Of a stretch of 64,000 bases of DNA, positions 1 to 11,925 are shown piece by piece; the stretch's first letter is position 1, and each line of letters begins with the position of its first letter. The stretch is from positions 3,934-67,933 of the forward strand of contig JBGAML010000022.1 of assembly GCA_044223005.1 (NCBI GenBank), read 5' to 3'. Made by a program: the position numbers and the translations under genes. This DNA comes from Candidatus Eiseniibacteriota bacterium. Its GTDB lineage: Bacteria; Eisenbacteria; RBG-16-71-46. Under the pieces are notes generated by a model, which was not told where the DNA came from, ran no database searches, and worked only from the letters and a program-made list of their open reading frames with translations.

Positions 1-281
1 CGCCACGCGGGTGCGAGCCAGGCGAACGGGCCGCGGCGCGACGCGCGCGCCGGGGCGGGCTGCGGTGCCACGAGATCGTCGATGAACGCGTCGAGCCGCG
101 CGCCGGCCTCGGCCGCGTGCGCTTCGGCGGGCAGCACTTCGGGGCGCGTGAACTCGGCGAGCGCCGAACGGCGCGCGCGGCAGCGCGGGCACCGCGCGAC
201 GTGCCGGAGTTCCGGCGCGTCGGCGGGAAGCGAGTCGAGCGCCGCCAGCTGCTCGATGGGGATGCAGTCCGTTCGGTCCAC
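1..281 (-). CDS. Zinc-binding anti-sigma factor (ZAS/zf-HC2-like), 3' end beyond the window edge
   Basis: Not in the ORF track. Manual translation from GTG at 281 (GGGAGG upstream) gives MDRTDCIPIEQLAALDSLPADAPELRHVARCPRCRARR, containing HxxxCxxC. Directly downstream of the ECF sigma; open to base 1. Confidence 0.8.
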   Translation of the reverse strand, partial: MDRTDCIPIEQLAALDSLPADAPELRHVARCPRCRARRSALAEFTRPEVLPAEAHAAEAGARLDAFIDDLVAPQPAPARASRRGPFAWLAPAW

Positions 282-295
282 GCTGCGCCCTCCCG

Positions 296-856
296 TCACC
301 CGTCCAGCGCCGCGCGCAGCTTGCGGCGCGCGGTCTGCAGCATGCCTCGTGCGCCCGAGATGCCGGGCACGCCGAGGACACGCGTGATGTCTTCGATGCT
401 CATCTCCTCGTAGGCCCGCAACCAGAGCGCCGTCTGTTCTTCCGGAGAGAGCACGTCGCGCATCGCGGCGAGCACGCGCTCCTCGTCGAACTTCCGCTCG
501 GTTCGTTCCTCCGGCGTCTCCGCATCGTCGGAGACGCGTTCGGCTTCTTCCCACTCCACGCGCACCGGACGGCTCCGCCGCAGTTCGGACAGGCAGCGAT
601 TCCGCACGATCGCGAACATCCACGACGACACGCGCGCGCGAGGTTCGAAGCCCGGCAGCGCGCGATGGATGAGCACCAGGCAGTCCTGCGCGAGGTCCTC
701 GGCCAGCTCGCGATCGCGCACCATCCGCCAGCACCAGGCGTAGATGGACGCGCGCCAGCGCTTCAGCAACTCCGACGCCGCCTTCCGGGCCATGTCCGAC
801 CCGGCGGCCGACTGGATCCGTTGGACGAGTTCTTCGTCGCTGCGGAGGTCGGTCAT
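296..856 (-). CDS. ECF-family RNA polymerase sigma factor
   Basis: 186 aa; region 2 motifs AEDLAQD and SWMFAIVRN; region 4 LSPEEQTALWLRAYEEMSIEDITRVLG...ARRKLR. Confidence 0.93.
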   Translation of the reverse strand: MTDLRSDEELVQRIQSAAGSDMARKAASELLKRWRASIYAWCWRMVRDRELAEDLAQDCLVLIHRALPGFEPRARVSSWMFAIVRNRCLSELRRSRPVRVEWEEAERVSDDAETPEERTERKFDEERVLAAMRDVLSPEEQTALWLRAYEEMSIEDITRVLGVPGISGARGMLQTARRKLRAALDG

Positions 857-860
857 CGAA

Positions 861-889
861 TTGAACGCGCGGGGCCGGCCGGAATCACA
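861..889 (-). promoter_or_regulatory. Putative autoregulatory ECF promoter TGTGAT-N16-CGTTCAA
   Basis: Minus strand reads TGTGAT tccggccggccccgcg CGTTCAA ttcg ATG. No RBS, so probably leaderless. Same motif and spacing at 10933-10961. Confidence 0.7.
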
Positions 890-957
890 TCGGGGAGCAT
901 GATGCCGCTCATGTTACCGCATGCCCGGGTGCGGTTTCCCCCGCCGGGGCGGCTAAG

Positions 958-3645
958 TCACGGCAGGATCGGCAGGATGGCCGGGCCCCGCGGGCGAACC
1001 GTCACCCGGGCCTCGGGATCGCCCCAGAGGACGAAGGCCGCCCAGGCGGCCGGACTGCGGGTCCCGGGATCGGCCGCGAGTTCGCGCCGGGCCGCGCTCA
1101 GGGCGGCCGCGACCGTCTGGCCGCGCTCCAGCTGGCGGTAGAACGCGCGCGAGAACGCGGCGGCGCCCCGGTCGTCGACCGGCCAGATCGAGGACACGAC
1201 CGCCGGCGCCCCGGCGGCGAGGAACGCCGTCGACAGCCCGGAAGCGCCCTCGTTGCCGAACTTGCCGTAGGCGGTGCCGCTGCACGAGGTGAGCACCACG
1301 AGCTTCGCCGCCAGCGGCTGCCCGGCCAGGTCGCGGGCGGTGAGCTGGGCCTCGTCGCTGTCGCCCTTCCCCAGCAGCAGCGCCGAGCTCCAGGGATCCT
1401 CGCGCGGCACGTCGGCATGAGCGGCGACGTGCAGCACGTCCCCGCGCGCGAGCCACGGCGTCACCTGGCCGAGCGGCCGGTCGCCGCCGTGCACGATCCC
1501 GCGCGCGCCGAAGCGGGCCGCGAGCCAGCGCGTCTCCTCCCGCACGCCGGGCAGTTCGCGCCCGGCGGGGCCGGTGGAGCGCGCGACCTGCACGACGCGC
1601 GCATCGCGCACCTGCACCGAACCGCGCGCGCGCCGATGCGCGAGCCAATTGGCCGAGGGCAGGTAGGCGGTCTCGTGATCGTTCGCGCCCGCGGCCCGGA
1701 AGAGCAGGCCGAAGGGCACGATCCCGACCATCGAGCTCGGCACCACGAGTACGCGACGCGACGCGCACAGCCGCTCGTACGCCGGTCCCGCGAGCGTGCG
1801 GCCGATGGCCTCCGTCACCGCACGATCCGGTCCGGAGTCGCTCGTGCGGACGAGCGCCTGCAGGCGTTCGAGCCGCTCGAGCAACGGACCATCGGCGTCG
1901 ATCCAGTGTGCGATGACGCCGCTCCGGTCCACGACGAACGCCAGCGTCGTGTCGTTGCGCGAGCTGTAGAAATCGATCAGCGCTTCGCCGGGCCGCAGCA
2001 CGCGCCCGCGCAGCTCCGCGGACGTGACGAACGTGGCGCTGGAACCCGCCGACCCCGAATCGCGCGCCGAGAGCCGGAACTGCAACGCCCGCGCCTTGAA
2101 GCGCTGCAGTGCGTCGAACGCGTCGGCGGCGCGCGAGGACTCGGTGCCGCCGCGGCGTGGATCGAGCAGGATTCGCGCGGTCTCGACCGAGAGCGAGCCC
2201 GAGCCGTTGCCGATCACCTCGAGCCAGTCGGCGCTGCGCGTGGCGGCGCGGGCGCGTTCCCACGCGCGCGCGCCTTCGCGGGCGGCGAGCGCCGCACCGT
2301 CGAGGTCTCCCAGCTGGCGGCGGGCACGCGCCCGTTCGACCTCGGCCGTGACCCGCGCGGGATCGCGCAGCCCGGGACGGCCGATCGAGGTCTCGAACGC
2401 GGCGAGCGCCGCCAGCGCCTCGGCCGGATGCCCGCAGCTGTTCTCGGCGCGCGCGCGCACGATGCGCATCGCGTCGACGATCGCGCCGCTCTCGGGCAGC
2501 CGGTAGCGAGCCGGCGCCTCGCGCAGCATCGTCCGGCATTCCTCGGCGCGCCGGGTCTCCAGGAGCACGAGGCCGAGCTGGTTCAGAGCGTTCGCCACCT
2601 CGTCGGCGGCGAGCGAGTCGGCGCGCGCCAGCTGCGCCCGCAGGATCTGCTCGGCTTCCGCGTAGCGGTATTGCGCGCGGCGCGCCACCGCGAGCTGCGT
2701 CCGCAGCTCGTCGCGGGCCTCGGCGTCACCGGGCGAAGCGGGGCGTGCGAGCTCGGTCTCGAGCAGCGACACCGCCTCCTCCGTGCGGCCCTGGTTCACG
2801 AGCAGGATGGCGAGGTTGCCGAGCTGCCTCAGGACCGGCCGGCCGGCGCGCCGGTTGAGCGCGAGCGAGTAGCTCCAGAACGCCGCGGCGTGCGCGGGAT
2901 CGCCGTGCTCGGACTCGATCACGCCGAGGTTGTTCCACGCGTCGGCCTCGTCGTAGAGATCGCCGAGCGCGTGGGCGCGAGCGATCACCTCGCGATAGGC
3001 CGCCTTCGCGCCCGCGAGGTCGTCGAGCACGTAGAGGGCACGCGCCAGCCCGACGCGCGCCGAGAACTCGCTCGCTCGCTCGGGCGAACGCTGGAGCAGC
3101 GCGACGGCAGCGCGGTAGCCGGTGGCCGCGGCGCGCGAGCGGCCGGCCTGGAGGTCGAGGTACGCGAGCCCGAGGCGCGCGTTGCCCTCGAGCCCGGGCT
3201 GGCGCAGGGCGCGTGCGAGCGGCAACAGCTGGCGGTAGACCGGCGCGGCGTCCGCGAACCGCGAGCGGAACGCGTGCGCCCGGCCGATCACGAGCAGCGC
3301 GCGCGCCCACGTGAGCGTGTCGCCCATCGCGCGCGCCGCGGAGATCGCGGTCTGCGCGTCGCGCACGGCGTCGTCGTAGCGGCGGAAGAAGACCCACGCG
3401 CTCGCGCGCCGGACCGTGGCCGCGTTTTCGAGCGCGCGATCGCCGTTCGCGTGCGCCGCCGCCACGAGCGAATCGAGCCGGGCGTTCGCCCGCGCGACCT
3501 GGCCACGCGCGTACAGCGTGTCGACCCCGGCGAGCGACGCCTCGATCGCCGCGCGACCGGTCGCGGCGGAGGCAGGCGGTGCGGAGCCCACGACGGCGAT
3601 CGCGAGCAGGGCGAGACACCCGATGAAGACGGATCGGTGGGACAT
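958..3645 (-). CDS. Exported TPR-repeat CHAT-domain (caspase-like) protease
   Basis: N-terminal signal-like sequence, TPR-like helices (AWNNLGVI, LGNLAILL, ALNQLGLV), C-terminal CHAT with VLHVAAHA (His), LVVLTSC (Cys), GLSTAFLAAGA, SIWPVDD, PAAWAAF. Confidence 0.9.
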   Translation of the reverse strand: MSHRSVFIGCLALLAIAVVGSAPPASAATGRAAIEASLAGVDTLYARGQVARANARLDSLVAAAHANGDRALENAATVRRASAWVFFRRYDDAVRDAQTAISAARAMGDTLTWARALLVIGRAHAFRSRFADAAPVYRQLLPLARALRQPGLEGNARLGLAYLDLQAGRSRAAATGYRAAVALLQRSPERASEFSARVGLARALYVLDDLAGAKAAYREVIARAHALGDLYDEADAWNNLGVIESEHGDPAHAAAFWSYSLALNRRAGRPVLRQLGNLAILLVNQGRTEEAVSLLETELARPASPGDAEARDELRTQLAVARRAQYRYAEAEQILRAQLARADSLAADEVANALNQLGLVLLETRRAEECRTMLREAPARYRLPESGAIVDAMRIVRARAENSCGHPAEALAALAAFETSIGRPGLRDPARVTAEVERARARRQLGDLDGAALAAREGARAWERARAATRSADWLEVIGNGSGSLSVETARILLDPRRGGTESSRAADAFDALQRFKARALQFRLSARDSGSAGSSATFVTSAELRGRVLRPGEALIDFYSSRNDTTLAFVVDRSGVIAHWIDADGPLLERLERLQALVRTSDSGPDRAVTEAIGRTLAGPAYERLCASRRVLVVPSSMVGIVPFGLLFRAAGANDHETAYLPSANWLAHRRARGSVQVRDARVVQVARSTGPAGRELPGVREETRWLAARFGARGIVHGGDRPLGQVTPWLARGDVLHVAAHADVPREDPWSSALLLGKGDSDEAQLTARDLAGQPLAAKLVVLTSCSGTAYGKFGNEGASGLSTAFLAAGAPAVVSSIWPVDDRGAAAFSRAFYRQLERGQTVAAALSAARRELAADPGTRSPAAWAAFVLWGDPEARVTVRPRGPAILPILP

Positions 3646-3961
3646 GGGGACTCGAACGGGGGGGGGACGCGTCGGCGTGGGTCCCGGGCGAGGGGTTGAC
3701 CCACCGGAATCCGATGGAAACTAGCGGCTGCCCGGCCCCTCGGCCAGTCGGGACGAACCGGGGCACCCGACCTTCGTCCGCCGGAGCCGAGAATGGGTCA
3801 CACCCGGGGCTTTCGCGAGTAGTTCCCCCATCGGATGCGCGGCCGAGGGGCCTCCTCGCGGCCGACCCACTCGCGACCGGCCGGGCCCGCAGGCCCTCCC
3901 TGGTCGTCGCTGCCGGCCGGGCGCTGCGCGTGCCCACGCCGGCGTGCTCCCGGAGGACACG

Positions 3962-4831
3962 ATGCGACTGGTTCCGCTGGTTCGGTTCGGCTCCCGGCGC
4001 CGCGGCGCCATCGGCGGCGCCCTCGCGCTCGCCCTCGTGGTCCTGATCGGCATCACGGCCGGCGACGTGCATCGTCGCCGCGCGACCGGCCCGATCGAAT
4101 GCGTCTCGACCCAGGTCGCGGAGGCGGCGTCGCTGCCCGGCGGCCCGGACCGCATGGGCATGGTGGACTGGTTCGCCACGCACCCCGAGAACCGCCCCGC
4201 GGTGCGCGCGAGCGCGAACGCCGCGGTCACGGATTCCTTCCTCGTCCAGGGATTCACGTTCGTGCACGCCACCACCGGCCTGCAGGACACGGCGTTCGTG
4301 TTCGAGGGCGACGGCGTGAAGTGGAACTGGGTCGTGGGTTCGCACACGATCACCGACGGCACCGGCGGGCTCGACCCGAATGCGGGGTTGATGTTCGACG
4401 CGGCCAGCTCGACGTTCGCGCGCTCGTTCACGTTCTTCTTCCCCACCGCCGGCGTGTATCCCTTCTTCTGCCGCATCCACGAGACCTTCGGCATGAAGGG
4501 CGTCGTGGTGGTGAAGCCCCATCCCGCCGGCGTCGCGCCCGGCGCCGCCGGCGGCGAGGGCTTCGCGCGACCGCCATTCCCGAACCCGGCGCGGGGCTCG
4601 TCCAGCTTCCGGCTCGCGATGGCGCGCCCGGGCCGGGTCGCGCTGACGATTCTCGACGCGCAGGGCCGTCGCGTGGCGACCGTGCTCGACGGCGACCACG
4701 CCGCCGGCACGTTCGACGCCACGTGGAACGGGCTCACCGCTGCCGGCCGCACCGCCGCGCCCGGGCGTTACCTCGCCCGGCTCGAGATGCCCGGCCTGAT
4801 GCAGACGCGCGCGCTCACCCTGATTCGCTGA
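3962..4831 (+). CDS. Secreted cupredoxin (type 1 copper) protein with C-terminal FlgD-Ig-like domain
   Basis: GGAGG before ATG 3962; N-terminal hydrophobic segment; GSHTIT...YPFFCRIHETFGMKGVVVV supplies His/Cys/His/Met ligands; PFPNP...ILDAQGRRV...WNG...GRYLARL tail. Confidence 0.8.
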   Translation: MRLVPLVRFGSRRRGAIGGALALALVVLIGITAGDVHRRRATGPIECVSTQVAEAASLPGGPDRMGMVDWFATHPENRPAVRASANAAVTDSFLVQGFTFVHATTGLQDTAFVFEGDGVKWNWVVGSHTITDGTGGLDPNAGLMFDAASSTFARSFTFFFPTAGVYPFFCRIHETFGMKGVVVVKPHPAGVAPGAAGGEGFARPPFPNPARGSSSFRLAMARPGRVALTILDAQGRRVATVLDGDHAAGTFDATWNGLTAAGRTAAPGRYLARLEMPGLMQTRALTLIR

Positions 4832-4887
4832 CCCCCTCACTCACCCGATCGCGCGGGACGGCCGGATGCCGTCCCGCCGGAGGATCC

Positions 4888-6123
4888 ATGCGTTCGATCG
4901 CTCGCGCGCTGGTCGCGCTGGCGCTGTGCTCGATGGTGCTCCCCTGGACCGCACGCCGCGGCGAGGGCCTGCCGCTCTACGCCGCGCGCACGGGCCTCAT
5001 GTGCCAGAGCTGCCACTTCGATCCCAACGGCGGTGGGCCGCGCACCGACTTCGGCTTCGCCTTCGCGAGCCATCGTCACACGATCGAACCCGAGACGACC
5101 GGCACCTGGAAGGACCTCGCGCTCACGAACCGCGTCTCGGAATCGATGCCGGTCTACTTCGGCCTCGACCAGCGATTCATGCTGCTCTCGAACGCGAACG
5201 TCACCTCGTCGCCGGCCGAGCGCGCGGGCTTCTTCAACATGGAGAACGCGCTCTACGTGTCGTTCCAGCCGCACCCGCGGCTGGCCCTCGTCTACAGCCG
5301 CGACGCCTTCAACGACGCGACGCTGGCGCAGGACGCGTTCGGCGTGATCTCGGGCTTCCCGCTCGACGGCTACCTGAAGGCGGGCCGCTTCCGCACGCCG
5401 TTCGGCCTGCGCATGGACGATCACACCGTGGCCACGCGCGAGGGCTACCTGAACCTCACGGGCGGGCCCGCGTTCCTGCCCTATGATCCTCGCTTCCCCG
5501 ACATGGGCGTCGAGATCGGCGGCGACCATGGCAGCGTCTTCGGCCGCGCAGCGTTCACGAACGGCAATTCCAACGTCTTCGGGCCGCAGCCCTTCGCGCA
5601 CACCGCCACCGCCAAGCTCGGCGTCAACCTGCCGTGGGTGCAGACCGCGGTCTCGGTGCACGACGACTACGAGAAGAACGCCAAGTTCCCCTTCCGCCGC
5701 GCACGGCGCTGGAGCACGTACGCGCTCACGCACTGGAAGCGGCTGGTGTTCATCGGCGAAGTGGGCGCGGGCACCGACGACTTCGCGAAGAAGGACATCC
5801 GCGGCGCGCACAACAACCTGCTCGCGGGCTTCGGCGAGATCGACTGGACGGTGAACCGCGCGCTCAACCTGCGCGTGCGCGCCGACCACCTGGAGACCAG
5901 CCGTGACGGCACGGAGTTCACGCGCCCGGACGGCTCGATGGTGTCGATCCAGGACGTGAGCTCGTTCGATCGCTGGTCGCTGGAAGGCGAGATCCTCCCC
6001 GTTCCGTTCGGCGAGATCCGCGCCTCGTACCGCGTCATCTCGCCCGTCGCGAAGACCGACATCGCGGGCGAGAAGGTCCGCACCGAGCGGCAGGGCTACC
6101 TGCAGTTCCACTTCAGCTACTAG
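4888..6123 (+). CDS. Cyc2-like monoheme cytochrome c fused to an outer-membrane beta-barrel
   Basis: GGAGG before ATG 4888; signal peptide, then LPLYAARTGLMCQSCHFDPNGGGPRTDFG with a single CxxCH; remainder is amphipathic beta-strand-like and ends YLQFHFSY (aromatic terminal residue). Confidence 0.72.
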   Translation: MRSIARALVALALCSMVLPWTARRGEGLPLYAARTGLMCQSCHFDPNGGGPRTDFGFAFASHRHTIEPETTGTWKDLALTNRVSESMPVYFGLDQRFMLLSNANVTSSPAERAGFFNMENALYVSFQPHPRLALVYSRDAFNDATLAQDAFGVISGFPLDGYLKAGRFRTPFGLRMDDHTVATREGYLNLTGGPAFLPYDPRFPDMGVEIGGDHGSVFGRAAFTNGNSNVFGPQPFAHTATAKLGVNLPWVQTAVSVHDDYEKNAKFPFRRARRWSTYALTHWKRLVFIGEVGAGTDDFAKKDIRGAHNNLLAGFGEIDWTVNRALNLRVRADHLETSRDGTEFTRPDGSMVSIQDVSSFDRWSLEGEILPVPFGEIRASYRVISPVAKTDIAGEKVRTERQGYLQFHFSY

Positions 6124-6292
6124 GCGGCACTTTCCGCGCTCCACGGGAGTGTCACCCACCGCGGCGCGGCCGGTCTTCGGACCGCGCCGCGCCGTGCGCT
6201 ATCCTGACGGCCGCGTTCCCCCGCCCCGGCGTTCCGGGGCACCACCGTCCGCGCGCTCGCGCGCGCTCACGTGCCGCAGGAGTGTCGCTCGC

Positions 6293-6820
6293 ATGTCCGC
6301 CCCGAATCCCTCGCCGCGTCGCGCCCCGTCTCCCTGGCTCTGGCTGCTGCTCGTCCCGGTCGCGCTGATCCTGGGCCGCGTGGTCGGCGGCATGAACGTC
6401 TCGCCCGTGCATCACGGCACCGCGACCGAGTCGGCGGCGGCCGGCGGCGTGCGCTGGACGTCGCTCGCCGACGCCGAGGCGGAGGCGAAGCGCACGGGCA
6501 AGCCGGTACTCTACGACTTCAACGCCGACTGGTGCCCGCCCTGCCAGGCGATGAAGCACCAGATGTTCGAGAATCCCGCCGACGCGCGCGCGATCGAAGC
6601 GGTGGTCGTGCCCGTCTCGGTCGTGGACCGCTACAAGGAGAATGGCGCCAACCCGCCCGAGATCGAGGCGCTGCAGCAGCGCTTCCAGATCTACGCGTTC
6701 CCGACGCTGATCGTGCTCTCGCCCACCACCGGCCGGTTCGTGAAGCGCGAAGGCTTCGACGGCGCCGCATCGACGCGCGAGTGGATCGCGCAAGCGGCGG
6801 CGAGCCTGAAATCGTCGTAG
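6293..6820 (+). CDS. Membrane-anchored thioredoxin-family protein
   Basis: AGGAG before ATG 6293; N-terminal TM; KPVLYDFNADWCPPCQAM and cis-Pro loop AFPT. Confidence 0.85.
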   Translation: MSAPNPSPRRAPSPWLWLLLVPVALILGRVVGGMNVSPVHHGTATESAAAGGVRWTSLADAEAEAKRTGKPVLYDFNADWCPPCQAMKHQMFENPADARAIEAVVVPVSVVDRYKENGANPPEIEALQQRFQIYAFPTLIVLSPTTGRFVKREGFDGAASTREWIAQAAASLKSS

Positions 6821-6832
6821 CGCGCGGAACGT

Positions 6833-6875
6833 GAAACGGCGCCGGCCCCACGCGGGGCCCGGCGCCGTTTCGTTT
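6833..6875. terminator. Probable bidirectional intrinsic terminator
   Basis: GAAACGGCGCCGGCCCC acgc GGGGCCCGGCGCCGTTTC followed by GTTT, between convergent genes. Confidence 0.75.
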
Positions 6876-6886
6876 CCGCGTCGGGA

Positions 6887-9800
6887 TCAGCGAACGCGCG
6901 TCACGCGCGTGCCGACCTCTCGGCCCATGGCCTCGAGCCGGACGAAGTAGACGCCCGCGGGCGTGGGGACGCCCTGGCCGTCGTTGCCGTCCCAGAGCAG
7001 CTCCTGGGGACCCGCGGGGCGCCAGCCGTCGACCAGCGTGCGCACGCGGCGGCCCTGCACGTCCTGCACGGTGAGCCGCGCCATGCCCCCGTGCGGCAGC
7101 GTGAAGCTGAGCCGGCTGCCGCCGCGCGTGGGATTCGGCGCACCGGGCGCGAGCGCGACCAGTTCCGCGGCGTCGACCGCGGGCTCCACCGCGAGCACGG
7201 GGCCGTTCATGCGGAAGTCGCCTTCGTTGACGCCGTTGCCCGGCATCGAGAACCACGGCGTGCGCGGGAAGTAGGGCGACTTGGAGAGGATCCGCGCGCG
7301 CCAGTGCGACGGATCGTTCACCGCGGCGCTGCTCGCTGCGAGACCCATCGGGAATGGCGCACCGAGATCGGCGAGCCCCCACGCGGTGAGCGTCGTGCCG
7401 CTGCCGTTCATCACCTGGTTGCGACCCTTGAGCTCCATCTGCATGCGCACGCGGCCGCGACCCTTCGCGGTCCACGGCCGCAGCTCGCCATAGATCCCGG
7501 GCGATGCCGCGCGGCCGAGCGTACTGACGGTCGTGAGCAGGCAGAGGCTCGGGCACGCCTGGTACTGGAAGATCTGCCGCGGGATGCCCTGCTGGTTGCC
7601 GAGGTAGAGCGCGGCATGCCCGGCGCGGTAGTCGAAGAAGCTCACGTCGTAGCCCGGCTCGCCCACCATCACGTCGGCGAAGCCGTCACCGTTCACGTCG
7701 CCCGCAGGCGCCACGATGTGGCCGACGTTGCTGTAGGGCGCGAGGCCGTCCACGGTCCACGAGGCGTTGGCCGCGAGGCCGGCCGCGCCGCCGCGGTAGA
7801 GGTAGACGCGCCCGCAGTCGGGACCACCCGCGCCGTCGTGGAAGACCGCGCCCACCAGCAGGTCGGTGAAGCCGTCGTCGTCCACGTCGCCCGCGCTGGA
7901 GATGGCGGCACCGTAGCCGTCGTAGGCTTCGTCGCCGTCGTGGGCCCACGACGCCGTCGCCGGCAGGCCGAAGGCGCCGCCGAAGAAGGCCTCGACGCGG
8001 CCGGCATCGACGATCGACGAATCCCAGCCGTTGAAACCGACCAGAACGTCGGAGAAGCCATCGCCGTTCACGTCCGCCATCGCGGTCGAGGCGCCGAAGA
8101 GCGCGGAGTTCTGGCCCGTCACCGTGTGCGTCCAGCCCACCTCGTGGCGGAGCCCCTTCTCGCCCGCGAGATTGCCGTCGGCGATGCCGTAGTAGAGCGA
8201 GACGCGGCCCGCGTCGGTGTCGGTGCCGTTGTCCCAGCCCGATGCGCCCACCACCAGGTCGCTCAGGCCGTCGCGGTTCACGTCGCCACCACCCGCGACC
8301 GACGAGCCGAACTGCGCGCCCGCCTGGCCACCCGAGTCCGACCACGCGGGCGTCGCCGCAAGCGTGCCGCCCTGGCCGAGGTAGACGCACGCATAGCCCT
8401 GGTCCGTCAGCGTGCCGTCGTAGCCCGACGCGCTGACGAAGATGTCGCCGAGACCGTCGCCGTTCAGGTCACCTGCCGAGCCGCAGCGGTAGCCGAAGTA
8501 GCTCGTGGGCCCGGGGCCGGAGGCGGACCAGATCGCGCTGCCCGCGGGCAGGCCACCGAGGTTGCCCTTCCACATCTGCACGCGGCCGATGTTGTTCCAC
8601 GTGTGCGAGGCGACGAGCAGGTCGCCGTAGCCGTCGTTGTTCACGTCGCCCGCGGGCGCGACGCACACGCCCATGTTCTCGCCCGCCACCGCGCCCAGGC
8701 GCTGCCACGACGGACTCGCCGCCACGCCGGTCGCGTTGCCGTAGTAGACGAACACCGCGCCGCCGTCGGCCGAGCCCGCGTCCCAGCCGGGCGCGCCGAC
8801 GGCCACGTCGCCGTAGCCATCGCCGTTCACGTCGCCGACACCGGACACGGACCAGCCGAGCACGTCCTGCGCGAGCTGGCCGTACGCGTTCCACGTCGCC
8901 GTGGTGGAGATGCCCTGCGAGCCGCCCAGGTAGCAGTAGGCCGCGCCGGACTTGAGCGTCGAGCCGTTGAGGTTCGAGTAGCCGGCGCCGACCAGCACGT
9001 CGCTGAAGCCGTCGCCGTTCACGTCGCCCGCGGTGGCCACCACGTTGGCGAACAGGTCGGTCGTGACCGCGGTCGTGACGCTCCAGATCGGCGATGCGTT
9101 GAACGCGCCGGGGCCACCGCCGTAGACGAACGCGGTGCCGGGGCCGCCGAACACGGGCTCGCCCACGAGCAGGTCCGCGTAGCCGTCGCCGTTCACGTCG
9201 CCCGCGGTGGCGACGCTGCTGCCGAAGTAGGCGTTCGCGACGTTGGATTCGAGCAGCGCGGGCGCGTGGTCGAGGCCGCTGCCGCTGCCATGGTAGATCG
9301 CGATGCGGCCTTCGAACGCCTGGCCACCCGCGAAATTGGGCGCGCCGATGCAGAGGTCCGAGTAGCCGTCGCCGTTCATGTCGCCGATGCCGCAGACCGT
9401 GTAGCCCCACTTGGAATAGATCTGGCCGTCGGTCTCGATCCACGAGGGCGAGAGCGTCGGCAGGTAGGGCGACGCGGCGCTGCCGTGGAACACGTACGTG
9501 TAGCCGATCAGCGTCGGCACCGCCGGCGCGCCGATGAAGACGTCGTCGTAGCCGTCGCCGTTCACGTCGCCGGCGCAACCCACCGACCAGCCGAACTGGA
9601 GCGCGAGGCTGTTCGACTCGAACTGCCACGTCGCCGTGCTCTGCAGCGGCGGGATGGAACCGCCCACGAACAGAAACGCGGCGCCTTCGCGGTCGGTCGG
9701 GTTGGTCCAGTGCGGCGCGCCCACGATCACGTCGGCGAAGCCGTCGCCGTTGACGTCGCCCGCGGTCGAGACGCAGTCGCCGAAGTAGGCGTTGGCGAGT

Positions 9801-10903
9801 CCGCCGCCACGGATCCACGTGGGCGTGGTCGAGAGGCCGCCCGAGCCGCCCAGGTAGGCGAACGCGGCACCCTCGTCCGTGAACGAGACGTCGTAGAGGA
9901 ACGCGCCCACGAGCACGTCGTCGTAGCCGTCGTTGTTGACGTCGCCCGCGGTCGAAACCGACACCCCGTAGCAGGCGCCGAGCTGGTTGCCGCGCTGGAA
10001 CCACGCCGGCGAGGTCGAGAGTCCGTTGGGCCCGCCCAGGTAGACGAACGCCGCGCCCTCGTTGACGAAGGTCTGGTCGTACTGCCACGCGCCCACGATC
10101 ACGTCGCTGTAGCCGTCACCGTTCACGTCGCCGGCCGTGGCCAGCGCCATGCCGAACTGCATGTCGGCCTGCGAGCCCTGCAGCGTGGCCTGCGGCGTGG
10201 TCGCGAGCGGGTCGACGGTGAGCGGGTAGGCCGCGCCCGCATCGTCGACGCGGATCTCGAGACCGCGCGCCGTGCGCGCGAAGGCGGCCGGCACGTCCTC
10301 GCCCGCGGCGTCGATCACGTGCAGCTGCGCGTAGAAGAACGCCGTGGCCCCGTCGGGCGCGTGGAAGGTGGCGCTGCGGCCGTCGGCGGCGACGTCGACC
10401 GCGCCTGCGCCGGAGGCGTCGAGCGCCAGTACGACCGGTTCGCGCCGCGCGCCGGACTCGGGGGCGCGGCGCAGCACGAAGCCCTGCTCGAGGCCCGCGC
10501 GGTCGTTGGCGAACCACTCGGTGGCGTCCAGCGCCTCGCGGTCGGACCACACGCGACCGTTCTCGTGCCGCAGGCGGCCCTCCGGCACGGCGGCCACGTT
10601 CGCGCCGCGGCCGAGCGCGGTCCACGCGAGCCGGATCGAGAAGGCCGAATCACCGCGCGTGCGCGAGGTGAGCGAAGCGCCCGCACGATCGATCGCGACG
10701 CGCAGGTCCTGCGCGCGGTTGGGCGCGGTCCAGCCCTCGCCCGCGGCGGTGAACTCGTATTCACGTGCCAGCAGCGCGGCGCGCGCGGCGGCGGTCCAGC
10801 TGGAATCGGGCGTGACGGCAGCGGGATGGTGCGCGGCCGGCGAGGCGAACGCCGCGGATGCGGCGAGCGACAGGGCGGCGAGGACGGCGGGGATGGTCCG
10901 CAT
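6887..10903 (-). CDS. Large secreted FG-GAP (integrin-alpha-like beta-propeller) protein with C-terminal FlgD-Ig-like domain
   Basis: Signal peptide; N-terminal domain ending YPLTVDP; 14 GDVNGDG-type Ca-binding repeats counted; tail GAPNP...DVQGRRVRTL...WDG...GVYFVRL. Confidence 0.9.
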   Translation of the reverse strand: MRTIPAVLAALSLAASAAFASPAAHHPAAVTPDSSWTAAARAALLAREYEFTAAGEGWTAPNRAQDLRVAIDRAGASLTSRTRGDSAFSIRLAWTALGRGANVAAVPEGRLRHENGRVWSDREALDATEWFANDRAGLEQGFVLRRAPESGARREPVVLALDASGAGAVDVAADGRSATFHAPDGATAFFYAQLHVIDAAGEDVPAAFARTARGLEIRVDDAGAAYPLTVDPLATTPQATLQGSQADMQFGMALATAGDVNGDGYSDVIVGAWQYDQTFVNEGAAFVYLGGPNGLSTSPAWFQRGNQLGACYGVSVSTAGDVNNDGYDDVLVGAFLYDVSFTDEGAAFAYLGGSGGLSTTPTWIRGGGLANAYFGDCVSTAGDVNGDGFADVIVGAPHWTNPTDREGAAFLFVGGSIPPLQSTATWQFESNSLALQFGWSVGCAGDVNGDGYDDVFIGAPAVPTLIGYTYVFHGSAASPYLPTLSPSWIETDGQIYSKWGYTVCGIGDMNGDGYSDLCIGAPNFAGGQAFEGRIAIYHGSGSGLDHAPALLESNVANAYFGSSVATAGDVNGDGYADLLVGEPVFGGPGTAFVYGGGPGAFNASPIWSVTTAVTTDLFANVVATAGDVNGDGFSDVLVGAGYSNLNGSTLKSGAAYCYLGGSQGISTTATWNAYGQLAQDVLGWSVSGVGDVNGDGYGDVAVGAPGWDAGSADGGAVFVYYGNATGVAASPSWQRLGAVAGENMGVCVAPAGDVNNDGYGDLLVASHTWNNIGRVQMWKGNLGGLPAGSAIWSASGPGPTSYFGYRCGSAGDLNGDGLGDIFVSASGYDGTLTDQGYACVYLGQGGTLAATPAWSDSGGQAGAQFGSSVAGGGDVNRDGLSDLVVGASGWDNGTDTDAGRVSLYYGIADGNLAGEKGLRHEVGWTHTVTGQNSALFGASTAMADVNGDGFSDVLVGFNGWDSSIVDAGRVEAFFGGAFGLPATASWAHDGDEAYDGYGAAISSAGDVDDDGFTDLLVGAVFHDGAGGPDCGRVYLYRGGAAGLAANASWTVDGLAPYSNVGHIVAPAGDVNGDGFADVMVGEPGYDVSFFDYRAGHAALYLGNQQGIPRQIFQYQACPSLCLLTTVSTLGRAASPGIYGELRPWTAKGRGRVRMQMELKGRNQVMNGSGTTLTAWGLADLGAPFPMGLAASSAAVNDPSHWRARILSKSPYFPRTPWFSMPGNGVNEGDFRMNGPVLAVEPAVDAAELVALAPGAPNPTRGGSRLSFTLPHGGMARLTVQDVQGRRVRTLVDGWRPAGPQELLWDGNDGQGVPTPAGVYFVRLEAMGREVGTRVTRVR

Positions 10904-10932
10904 GGGGATCCTCCAGGGCAGGGGTACGTGTG

Positions 10933-10961
10933 TTCAACGCCGCATCCCGCTCCGCATCACA
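10933..10961 (-). promoter_or_regulatory. Putative ECF promoter TGTGAT-N16-CGTTGAA
   Basis: Minus strand TGTGAT gcggagcgggatgcgg CGTTGAA, 29 nt upstream of the FG-GAP ATG with GGAGG in between; matches the motif at 861-889. Confidence 0.7.
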
Positions 10962-11046: not shown

Positions 11047-11925
11047 CTACTCGCGCCCGAGGAAGAGGAACCCGGCCGCCACGATCAACATGGCGCCCGC
11101 GACGCGCGGCACCAGCCGTTCCTCGGCGAAGAGCTTCCCGCCGAACAGCGAGGCGTACACGATGCTCGTGCGCTTGACCGCGAGCACCAGTGCCACCGGT
11201 CCCACGCGCGTGGCCTGCAGCTGGAAGAAGCGGTACCCCAGCGTCAGCACCGCGATCGCCACCAGCAGCGGCCACTGCTCGCGCGCGCCACGGCCCAGCG
11301 CCGCCCACGGCGTGCGGCGCACCGCGAGCACCGCGCCGAACACGAGCGCGTAGACGACGTGCTGGTGGAAGAGCACCACGTTGGGCGGCACCTTCATACC
11401 GCCGACCAGGAGCTTGTCCGCCACCGAGGAGATCGCGAACAGGAGCAGCGCCCCGATCATCCATCGCTGCCGCGGCGCCCAGAGCGCCTCGCCCAGTGCG
11501 CGCGGGCCCGCGACGCCGGCGCGCATCTCGAGCGCCCACGTACCCGCGACCATCAGCGCGAGCCCGATCCACTCGCCGCCGTGGAGACGCTCGCCGATCA
11601 GCAACTGCGCGAGCACGGCGGTGACGGCGGGCGTCAGCCCCATGAGCGGCAGGGCGCCGCTGATGGGGCTGCGCTCCAGCGTCATCATCACGAACAGGAA
11701 CGCGACGCCCCCGAGGACGCTCTTGCCCCACAGCACGCCCAGCGCGCGGGTGCTCAGCGCGAACGCGGGCGTCGTGAACGGCACCCACGCCGAGCACGCC
11801 AGGATCACGAGCGAGACGAGGAACGAGAACTCGAGCGCGTGCAGGCCGCGCAGCGTCTTCTTCTGGGCGATCGCCGCGGCGGCCGAGAGCACCGCCGACA
11901 CGGACGCGAGCGCGATCCAGTTCAT
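11047..11925 (-). CDS. EamA/DMT-family transporter
   Basis: 292 aa, about 10 TM segments in two repeats (GERL..GEWIG; AEERL..RVAG); 10 bp downstream of the TonB-dependent receptor. Confidence 0.88.
   Translation of the reverse strand: MNWIALASVSAVLSAAAAIAQKKTLRGLHALEFSFLVSLVILACSAWVPFTTPAFALSTRALGVLWGKSVLGGVAFLFVMMTLERSPISGALPLMGLTPAVTAVLAQLLIGERLHGGEWIGLALMVAGTWALEMRAGVAGPRALGEALWAPRQRWMIGALLLFAISSVADKLLVGGMKVPPNVVLFHQHVVYALVFGAVLAVRRTPWAALGRGAREQWPLLVAIAVLTLGYRFFQLQATRVGPVALVLAVKRTSIVYASLFGGKLFAEERLVPRVAGAMLIVAAGFLFLGRE

Follow-up and report, generated by a model that had tools for sequence, protein, structure and literature searches.

Introduction

The classical extracytoplasmic function (ECF) sigma factor system under the control of regulated intramembrane proteolysis (RIP) is RpoE/RseA of Escherichia coli, with DegS and RseP. 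A further described system is DdvS/DdvA of Myxococcus xanthus. DdvA is a single-pass anti-sigma factor in which a CHCC zinc domain is fused to a periplasmic TPR-CHAT part; its authors propose that self-cleavage of the linker is the site-1 step, and they state that cleavage by CHAT can be validated only once the activating signal has been found (PMC11506125). The cited part of that study places fused DdvA-like homologues only in Myxococcota and in one Comamonas (PMC11506125). Promoters of DdvS have the form GTAA-N16-CGT (PMC6061681). In type III-E craspase, Cas7-11 is combined with the TPR-CHAT protein Csx29, which cleaves Csx30 and controls an ECF-type sigma factor (PMC10028731, PMC11506125). 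This report concerns a 64,000-nucleotide (nt) stretch of DNA from a Candidatus Eiseniibacteriota bacterium (contig JBGAML010000022.1; the whole stretch is hereafter the window), in which the bipartite motif TGTGAT-N16-CGTT stands before the gene of an ECF sigma factor linked to a TPR-CHAT gene and again, 10 kb away, before the gene of an FG-GAP repeat protein. From the sequences compared below, we put the probability at roughly 0.8 that the motif is the promoter through which the CHAT-linked ECF sigma factor drives its own, leaderless transcript, and that the FG-GAP protein is a conserved member of the regulon of this sigma factor within the genus.

The locus can be set against the parts of the DdvS and DdvA papers cited above. 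In both cases, an ECF sigma factor is paired with a single-pass anti-sigma factor that has an N-terminal, cytoplasmic Cys-His-Cys-Cys motif of the zinc type (here a predicted zinc site, as in DdvA-type systems), and a periplasmic TPR-CHAT part carries an intact His/Cys dyad (here H743 and C788). For both, RIP is proposed to begin with cleavage of the juxtamembrane linker by CHAT, and both have an autoregulated promoter, predicted in the present case, with a 16-nt spacer and a CGT in the -10 element. In DdvA, however, TPR-CHAT is fused to the anti-sigma factor, whereas here it is a separate gene product of 895 amino acids (aa) with a signal-peptide-like start, so that cleavage would take place in trans between two gene products. 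The -35 element is GTAA in the DdvS system and TGTGAY here. The output of DdvS is a defence island of cyclic oligonucleotide-based antiphage signalling (CBASS) and clustered regularly interspaced short palindromic repeats (CRISPR), whereas an FG-GAP protein and other secreted proteins are the predicted outputs here. DdvA-like proteins come from Myxococcota and the one Comamonas, and the present family comes from records of Eisenbacteria, Krumholzibacteriota and Latescibacteria. Sequence searches of the PDB with the CHAT protein matched TPR proteins only and no CHAT structure, and phmmer returned no DdvA chain at E 0.01 or better.

Craspase, in the cited parts of its description, likewise couples TPR-CHAT to an ECF sigma factor, with release of the sigma factor proposed to follow from cutting of a sequestering partner. 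Craspase is cytoplasmic and RNA-guided, whereas the CHAT protein here has a signal-peptide-like N-terminus and its partner is a predicted membrane anti-sigma factor. No cas genes were found among the annotated neighbouring genes, a statement limited to these genes since no dedicated search of the whole genome was made. With RpoE/RseA, the locus shares a sigma/anti-sigma pair, here predicted to be co-transcribed and autoregulated, and, as proposed here, periplasmic site-1 cleavage followed by intramembrane cleavage (cited part of PMC11506125). The site-1 enzyme of RpoE/RseA is a serine protease, whereas the candidate here is a caspase-like CHAT protein encoded in the module itself; unlike the RpoE/RseA case, the sigma mRNA here is predicted to be leaderless. 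We found no description in the literature of a CHAT-linked sigma family or of an ECF promoter of the TGTGA type. In the study that reclassified the ECF sigma factors (PMC7826278), the main text contains none of the terms CHAT, TGTGA and leaderless; the supplements may list such a group.

The motif at the two sites of the window

On the minus strand, TGTGAT (889-884) is followed by the 16-nt spacer TCCGGCCGGCCCCGCG, CGTTCAA (867-861), TTCG and the sigma ATG at 856; the CGTT core (867-864) ends 7 nt 5' of this ATG, and CGTTCAA ends 4 nt 5' of it. Before the FG-GAP gene, the same strand reads TGTGAT (10961-10956), the spacer GCGGAGCGGGATGCGG, CGTTGAA (10939-10933) and 29 nt containing GGAGGA up to the ATG at 10903, which places the CGTT core (10939-10936) about 33 nt 5' of the start codon. 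The original prediction, made from the window alone, had put the two sites at exactly these positions, as re-reading of the sequence confirmed, and it had rightly described the spacers TCCGGCCGGCCCCGCG and GCGGAGCGGGATGCGG as equal in length (16 nt) and unrelated in sequence. TGTGAT-N16-CGTT matches the window twice against 0.01 expected, and two or more matches were reached in 0 of 100 shuffles. Scans around both sites found no sigma-70 promoters and no intrinsic terminators.

No possible start precedes the ATG at 856 in its frame, and the N-terminus read from this ATG aligns with those of the orthologues. This first start, taken together with the geometry of the motif, indicates that the transcript of the sigma and anti-sigma genes, and hence the sigma mRNA, is probably leaderless or nearly so. 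The predicted FG-GAP promoter lies upstream of a leader with a ribosome-binding site (Table 1). Three genes on the opposite strand separate the CHAT gene from the FG-GAP gene, so that the two loci do not form one operon; judging from this arrangement, the FG-GAP gene forms a transcription unit of its own, apart from the sigma locus, and the motif is all that links the two.

Conservation of the motif before sigma genes

Comparison of the sigma protein with 41 genomes, including its own (G000), gave a match at E <= 1e-20 in 22. None of the conclusions drawn here depends on G026, an unpublished genome. Inspection by eye of the 45 nt before the start codon revealed the two boxes at 27 of the 30 sigma loci fetched from relatives, the three most distant loci (33-41% identity) being without them. 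The closest orthologues read TGTGAC or TGTGCC, N16, CGTTCCA, 3-4 nt and ATG; over orthologues and paralogues, the form is YGTGAY-N16-(C/G)GTY, placed 3-7 nt 5' of the first start codon. In a tree of 29 sigma factors, the protein of the window falls into a seven-member clade (support 93/91) with those of G003, G013, G006, G004, G005 and G023. The -10 element is (C/A)GTT in all seven members of this clade, and GGTC(A/T)CA, ACTC or CGTC in other clades.

The comparison was widened by scanning GTDB species genomes with the sigma alignment, which gave 575 relatives; the best 80 were examined and 79 were usable. Most of these 80 carry the label Candidatus Eisenbacteria, Krumholzibacteriota or Latescibacteria. 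YGTGAY-N15-17-NGTY with an in-frame start no more than 9 nt further on (mode 7 nt) was present at 35 of 79 loci, against a background of 0.014 per 140 nt, and the strict form TGTGAY-N16-CGTY at 22 of 79, against 0.0015. The motif, which had been expected in orthologous sigma promoters, is thus present in many of them, whether it is sought by eye or by pattern. The fixed position before the start codon in relatives and a -10 element that tracks the sigma clade likewise argue for the view, taken in the original prediction, that the motif is the sigma factor's autoregulatory promoter.

Conservation of the motif before FG-GAP genes

The FG-GAP protein was compared with 26 genomes and had a match at E <= 1e-50 in 19. 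Reciprocal best orthologues were found in G013, G003, G006, G012, G005 and G004 (472-501 bits; next matches 214-274), and in these relatives the FG-GAP gene and the sigma gene are on different contigs. As the sequences stand, the 10-kb proximity of the sigma and FG-GAP genes is not conserved. Nevertheless, five of the six orthologues have YGTG.C-N16-C(G/A)TTCCA 70-110 nt 5' of the ATG (Table 1), where the background of a degenerate pattern spanning the orthologue variants is 0.0003-0.001 per 250 nt. The upstream regions cannot otherwise be aligned: MAFFT on all six, used solely to show their overall dissimilarity, left the boxes out of register. In G005 and G004, the extended -10 element CGTTCCATCC is identical between the FG-GAP promoter and the genome's own sigma promoter. 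More distant sequences include the FG-GAP orthologue of G018 (44% identity), with TGTGAT-N15-GTCTCCA, and an FG-GAP gene of the more distant genome G019, with TGTGAC-N16-CGTTCCC. The proposal that the output of the sigma factor includes the FG-GAP protein gains support from these matching variants in five of six reciprocal best orthologues.

Additional targets were sought in the same five genomes (G003, G013, G006, G005 and G004) with YGTGNY-N16-CGTTCC, which occurred 11-20 times per genome versus 4-11 for the reversed pattern and was set aside as too unspecific. When the TGTGAC subset was followed, two further TGTGAC-N16-CGTTCC sites (G003, G005; L146, L152) were found before genes of secreted proteins. 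The G003 target behind such a site, of 489 aa, resembles the broken target L003 on contig C4 of G000, which is described below.

Occurrence across the genome

The genome (4.52 Mb, 72% G+C) was annotated with a caller based on codon-usage log-odds and trained on long open reading frames with a high G+C content at third codon positions (GC3). It was chosen over two earlier GC3-based callers, both discarded, and it gave 3515 genes, with 90.6% of the sequence coding and about 9.4% non-coding. TGTGAT-N16-CGTT occurs six times in this genome, whereas the backwards pattern is absent, and five of the six sites are in the non-coding fraction. The number of TGTGAT-Nx-CGT matches for x from 13 to 20 was 4, 3, 7, 13, 9, 8, 8 and 7, with the maximum at 16. 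Among 60 letter permutations of the hexamer combined with N16-CGTT, TGTGAT tops the list of gene-upstream sites (4 by an automatic rule; next 2; mean 0.18). Signal-peptide-like N-termini are found on all three open reading frames behind the further exact non-coding sites, two on C4 and one on C33 (Table 1). One C4 site precedes four tandem paralogues (L008, 363-364 aa) with signal-peptide-like starts; a Pfam scan, limited to the first of them, gave no match. The 133-aa frame behind the other (L003) takes on an Arg-rich composition from about residue 100, which suggests a frameshift.

Looser patterns behave similarly with respect to position. TGTGAY-N16-CG has 75 matches, 23 of them non-coding (p 2e-7), and lies upstream of 15 genes; TGTGAY-N16-17-NGTY has 55, again with 23 non-coding (binomial p 2e-10 versus 9.4%), upstream of 17 genes; TGTGAY-N16-CGT has 25, with 10 non-coding, upstream of seven genes; and 13 of 19 matches to TGTGAY-N16-17-NGTYNNA are non-coding. 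An iterated hidden Markov model of the tail assigned a FlgD_ig-like C-terminal tail to 203 of the 3515 proteins (Pfam gave 139 matches on DNA). This tail is encoded by five of the 15 genes behind TGTGAY-N16-CG (p 0.0012), 11 of which have a signal peptide by a crude rule (p 0.006); behind TGTGAY-N16-17-NGTY, the corresponding figures are five (p 0.002) and nine (p 0.15) of 17. The enrichment of the motif at non-coding, gene-upstream positions is therefore robust, whereas its enrichment before FlgD-tailed genes is modest, depends on the pattern and is suggestive only. The original prediction had proposed a genome scan for TGTGAY-N16-CG with enrichment before secreted, FlgD-tailed proteins; the positional half of this expectation stood, and the FlgD-tail half did so only to the modest extent just given. 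The motif itself is real, non-random and conserved.

Two sequence elements on contig C5 are related in appearance. At least 11 tandem units of 45-48 bp, each with GGTGAY-N16-CGTTCGA, lie upstream of a 499-aa gene (G000:C5:257986-258740); the unit resembles the promoter pattern, yet it belongs to a repeat array. A perfect palindrome, TGTGAC-N17-GTCACA (G000:C5:73884-73913), separates two divergently oriented genes, of which one is FlgD-tailed, and looks more like the site of a dimeric regulator than like a sigma promoter.

Paralogous modules

The genome contains four CHAT-sigma-anti-sigma modules, on C2 (that of the window), C23, C33 and C21, with sigma E-values of 2e-43 or better. The predicted promoter of the C21 sigma gene is TGTGAC-N17-GGTCTCA, and a 1715-aa FG-GAP/FlgD_ig gene directly after the C21 anti-sigma gene has TGTGAT-N17-GGTCCCA upstream. 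Genome-wide, YGTGAY-N16-17-GGTCYMA gives four sites, all mostly non-coding. The C21 form (TGTGAY, N17) accounts for three of these: one for the C21 sigma gene, one for the FG-GAP gene of that module, and C15:7941. The remaining site, GGTGAC-N16-GGTCCAA, is the promoter of the C23 sigma gene. By these predicted promoters, the C21 module repeats the logic of a sigma gene and an FG-GAP gene under one motif, with its own variant of that motif.

The CHAT protein and the anti-sigma factor

The N-terminus of the CHAT protein is signal-peptide-like, as are those of 26 extracted homologues (by eye), and all 27 aligned rows have H739, H743 and C788. In an alignment of 62 anti-sigma sequences, C37, C40, R128 and W151 are the same in every row, and at least 90% of rows have C12 and H33. 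The anti-sigma factor has one hydrophobic span at about residues 101-117 (by eye), followed by about 105 predicted periplasmic residues; the invariant Arg128 sits in Leu127-Arg128-Gly129, 11 residues after the span. The protein has no match to a curated family above cut-off.

A CHAT domain is linked to the sigma gene at 64 of the 80 loci, in two gene orders. Of the 73 loci with sufficient flanking sequence, 40 have the CHAT gene upstream of the sigma gene on the same strand, and most of the others have it downstream of the anti-sigma gene. In this second order (sigma, anti-sigma, TPR-CHAT), seen at L074, L076, L089, L102, L110, L118, L121, L128, L129, L131, L133, L136-L138 and others, the CHAT gene follows on the same strand at a distance of about 3 kb, and the sigma promoter would then also serve the transcription of the protease gene. 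Conversely, no motif of the sigma type was found within 220 nt upstream of the CHAT gene at any of 26 loci, so that the protease would be outside the control of the sigma factor where the CHAT gene comes first. A TGTGAC-N16-CGGA in the window (3779-3756, minus strand), 134 nt 5' of the CHAT gene, was considered and rejected as a promoter; it is probably due to chance, since no such motif precedes the 26 homologous CHAT genes and its second box is no CGT.

When CHAT residues 30-895 were modelled in complex with residues 118-224 of the anti-sigma factor, the score was 0.64, against 0.00 for the best of three controls; among reference cases, 58 of 80 solved complexes and 2 of 110 mismatched pairs attain the mark used for this score, figures that are only approximate here because the alignments were our own. 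At least 96% of contacts are common to the runs, and the partner has a pLDDT (predicted local distance difference test) of at least 80. On the CHAT side, residues 741-746 and 786-788 belong to the modelled interface, as do residues 126-132 on the anti-sigma side, and the fold model puts the invariant Leu-Arg-Gly of the anti-sigma factor beside the His/Cys dyad of CHAT. The model thus supports binding of the anti-sigma factor by the CHAT protein, cleavage being outside what it addresses.

Proposed mechanism

In the mechanism that we propose, the sigma factor (296-856, minus strand) would read TGTGAT-N16-CGTT, and the copy in the space between the CHAT and sigma genes would give positive autoregulation. 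The second copy would drive the gene of the FG-GAP/FlgD_ig surface protein 10 kb away, and the three further exact copies stand before genes of other proteins predicted to be secreted. The exported TPR-CHAT protease, encoded just upstream and probably not itself under this promoter, would bind the periplasmic part of the single-pass zinc anti-sigma factor and, as an in-trans site-1 protease, cut it near Leu127-Arg128-Gly129; release of the sigma factor would follow through intramembrane proteolysis. Cleavage of the anti-sigma factor at Leu-Arg-Gly by the exported CHAT protease is a well-motivated proposal, to which we would give nearly even odds. The broader picture is tentative, and we would bet somewhat against its holding in full: an undescribed sigma family, widespread in Eisenbacteria, Krumholzibacteriota and Latescibacteria, that combines in-trans cleavage by TPR-CHAT, leaderless self-amplification through TGTGAY-N16-CGTY and, in this genus, FG-GAP outputs.

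Alternative explanations

The copy before the FG-GAP gene could be a real ECF-type promoter that is read by the C21, C23 or C33 sigma factor, or several of them, instead of the neighbouring one. All paralogues share a YGTGAY -35 element, there are four such modules in the genome, and an exact TGTGAT-N16-CGTT stands directly after the anti-sigma gene of the C33 module. The paralogues differ, however, in -10 core or spacer (N17-GGTCYCA for C21; GGTGAC-N16-GGTCCAA for C23), and among the sigma promoters only that of C2 has TGTGAT-N16-CGTT, like the FG-GAP site. In relatives, moreover, the -10 element of the FG-GAP orthologue matches that of the C2-clade sigma gene of the same genome, and we therefore consider reading by a paralogue unlikely. 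What sequence and comparison establish is the motif and its conservation, the clade-specific variants, their co-occurrence with FG-GAP orthologues and the order of the genes; from these we infer that transcription starts at the two sites, that the C2 sigma factor, rather than a paralogue, reads them, and that the anti-sigma factor is cleaved.

TGTGA resembles a half-site of the CRP/FNR type. The two boxes might thus be the binding site of another regulator, or some other element that is no promoter, and the palindromic TGTGAC-N17-GTCACA at C5:73884 would suit such a view. Neither window site has a palindromic partner. The element consists of two boxes set a constant 16 nt apart by unrelated sequence, and the second box, of the CGT type, co-varies with the sigma clade; the distance to the sigma start codon is fixed at 3-7 nt across phyla. 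This makes a site of that kind very improbable. Chance is harder still to credit as the origin of the two copies in the window: only 10 bases are specified and the pattern was spotted by eye in a single window, but 0.01 matches were expected there, the genome has six against none for the reversed control with five of them non-coding, and both sites are kept at orthologous positions in other genomes.

Several observations weigh against the promoter and regulon reading that we prefer. At the wider sigma loci, 44 of 79 failed the motif-plus-start test, and an FG-GAP gene is in the flanks of only 1 of 80. The FG-GAP site of G003 has CATT instead of CGTT, the FG-GAP upstream region of G023 has no motif, and the orthologue in G012 is also without it (G012 likewise lacks a close sigma orthologue, its best match having 42% identity). 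Because G004/G005 and G013/G006 are close pairs, the FG-GAP footprint amounts to about four lineages. With the strict TGTGAY-N16-CGT, neither the FlgD tail (1 of 7, p 0.34) nor the signal peptide (4 of 7, p 0.25) reaches significance. The similar -35 elements of the four CHAT-linked sigma genes, together with the exact copy after the C33 anti-sigma gene, mean that the paralogues may cross-read one another's promoters. Gene calls and start codons come from a simple home-made caller, and signal peptides and the membrane span were assigned by eye or by a crude rule. Solved structures of TPR-CHAT proteins with substrate (DdvA and craspase) exist, so that the pass of the complex model may partly reflect likeness to them. 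The only RNA run among 22 run rows (X20, with 0.05 of the sampled words) consists of contigs, with three small full-length pieces at 2602-2752, 3252-3479 and 10547-10809, which are uninformative on 5' ends and strand; it was not used as support, and carry-over of DNA is possible. Half or more of the sampled words occur as DNA in runs X1-X13, the genome being one of bioreactor or sludge communities. Finally, many ECF promoters share AAC in the -35 element according to the cited part of PMC6061681, and TGTGAY is without it.

Genes around the two sites

The sigma protein matches Sigma70_r2 at 50.7 bits (cut-off 24) and Sigma70_r4_2 at 23.3 bits, just below the cut-off of 25.7 (Pfam), and NCBIfam TIGR02937 (sigma70-ECF) at 81.5 bits (cut-off 42.9). 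A PDB sequence search with it matched generic ECF sigma factors. By these predictions, it has sigma regions 2 and 4 only, as in ECF (group 4) sigma factors, and it is co-encoded with a putative cognate anti-sigma factor. The FG-GAP protein matches FG-GAP (1e-89, in 14 stretches) and FG-GAP_3 (7.5e-39) in Pfam, and FlgD_ig at residues 1262-1326 (33.9 bits; cut-off 27); it is thus predicted to be an FG-GAP repeat protein with a FlgD Ig-like C-terminal tail. A gene of the EamA family is just upstream of the FG-GAP gene (Table 1), and one is also found just upstream of a paralogous CHAT gene (G000:C33:48070-48924, plus strand).

Table 1. Predicted promoter elements, genes and further motif sites; positions refer to the window unless a contig or another genome is given.
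Feature	Position	Strand	Remarks
Predicted -35 element TGTGAT, sigma promoter	884..889	-	Orthologues and paralogues have YGTGAY equally far from the ATG
Predicted -10 element CGTTCAA, sigma promoter	861..867	-	(C/A)GTT in 7/7 sigma-clade members
Predicted -35 element TGTGAT, FG-GAP promoter	10956..10961	-	Equivalent upstream of FG-GAP orthologues in G003, G013, G006, G005, G004
Predicted -10 element CGTTGAA, FG-GAP promoter	10933..10939	-	Orthologues: C(G/A)TTCCA after a 16-nt spacer
GGAGGA ribosome-binding site	10909..10914	-	Within predicted leader of ~27 nt; GGAGG also 5' of the orthologues' ATG
Anti-sigma gene, 224 aa	-375..299 (G000:C2:3558-4232; 1..299 inside the window)	-	4-nt overlap with sigma stop
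ECF sigma factor gene, 186 aa	296..856	-	Sigma70_r2 1.5e-13; TIGR02937
Predicted exported TPR-CHAT protease gene, 895 aa	958..3645	-	Pfam CHAT 4.6e-44 and TPR; directly upstream of sigma gene
FlgD_ig-tailed, cupredoxin-like (weak match) gene	3944..4831	+	
Gene of 411-aa protein	4888..6123	+	No family match
Thioredoxin-like gene	6293..6820	+	
FG-GAP repeat protein gene, 1338 aa	6887..10903	-	Signal-peptide-like N-terminus, C-terminal FlgD_ig tail
EamA transporter gene	11047..11925	-	Just upstream of FG-GAP gene
Exact TGTGAT-N16-CGTT site	C4, 109 nt 5' of first of four tandem paralogous genes		Locus L008, G000:C4:290251-294603
Exact TGTGAT-N16-CGTT site	C4, 47 nt 5' of 133-aa open reading frame		Locus L003, G000:C4:234409-234008
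Exact TGTGAT-N16-CGTT site	C33, 55 nt 5' of 190-aa open reading frame		Immediately after anti-sigma gene of C33 module
Exact TGTGAT-N16-CGTT site	C24, inside 957-aa gene		The only coding one of six
FG-GAP orthologue site, G003			TGTGAC-N16-CATTCCA
FG-GAP orthologue site, G013			CGTGTC-N16-CGTTCCA
FG-GAP orthologue site, G006			CGTGAC-N16-CGTTCCA
FG-GAP orthologue sites, G005 and G004			TGTGAC-N16-CGTTCCATCC

Implications

For an ECF sigma family of candidate phyla without cultured representatives, the motif offers a concrete regulon and promoter code that can be put to the test. With their clade-specific -10 variants, the sigma genes, predicted to be leaderless and autoregulated, would form a natural set of possibly orthogonal pairs of sigma factor and promoter. 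If the proposed cleavage is true, the module would be a split, two-protein version of the TPR-CHAT/anti-sigma idea and a biochemically tractable counterpart of the autoproteolysis model of DdvA. Since the protease and its presumed substrate are separate and a docking site is predicted, cleavage could be tested in vitro independently of finding the signal.

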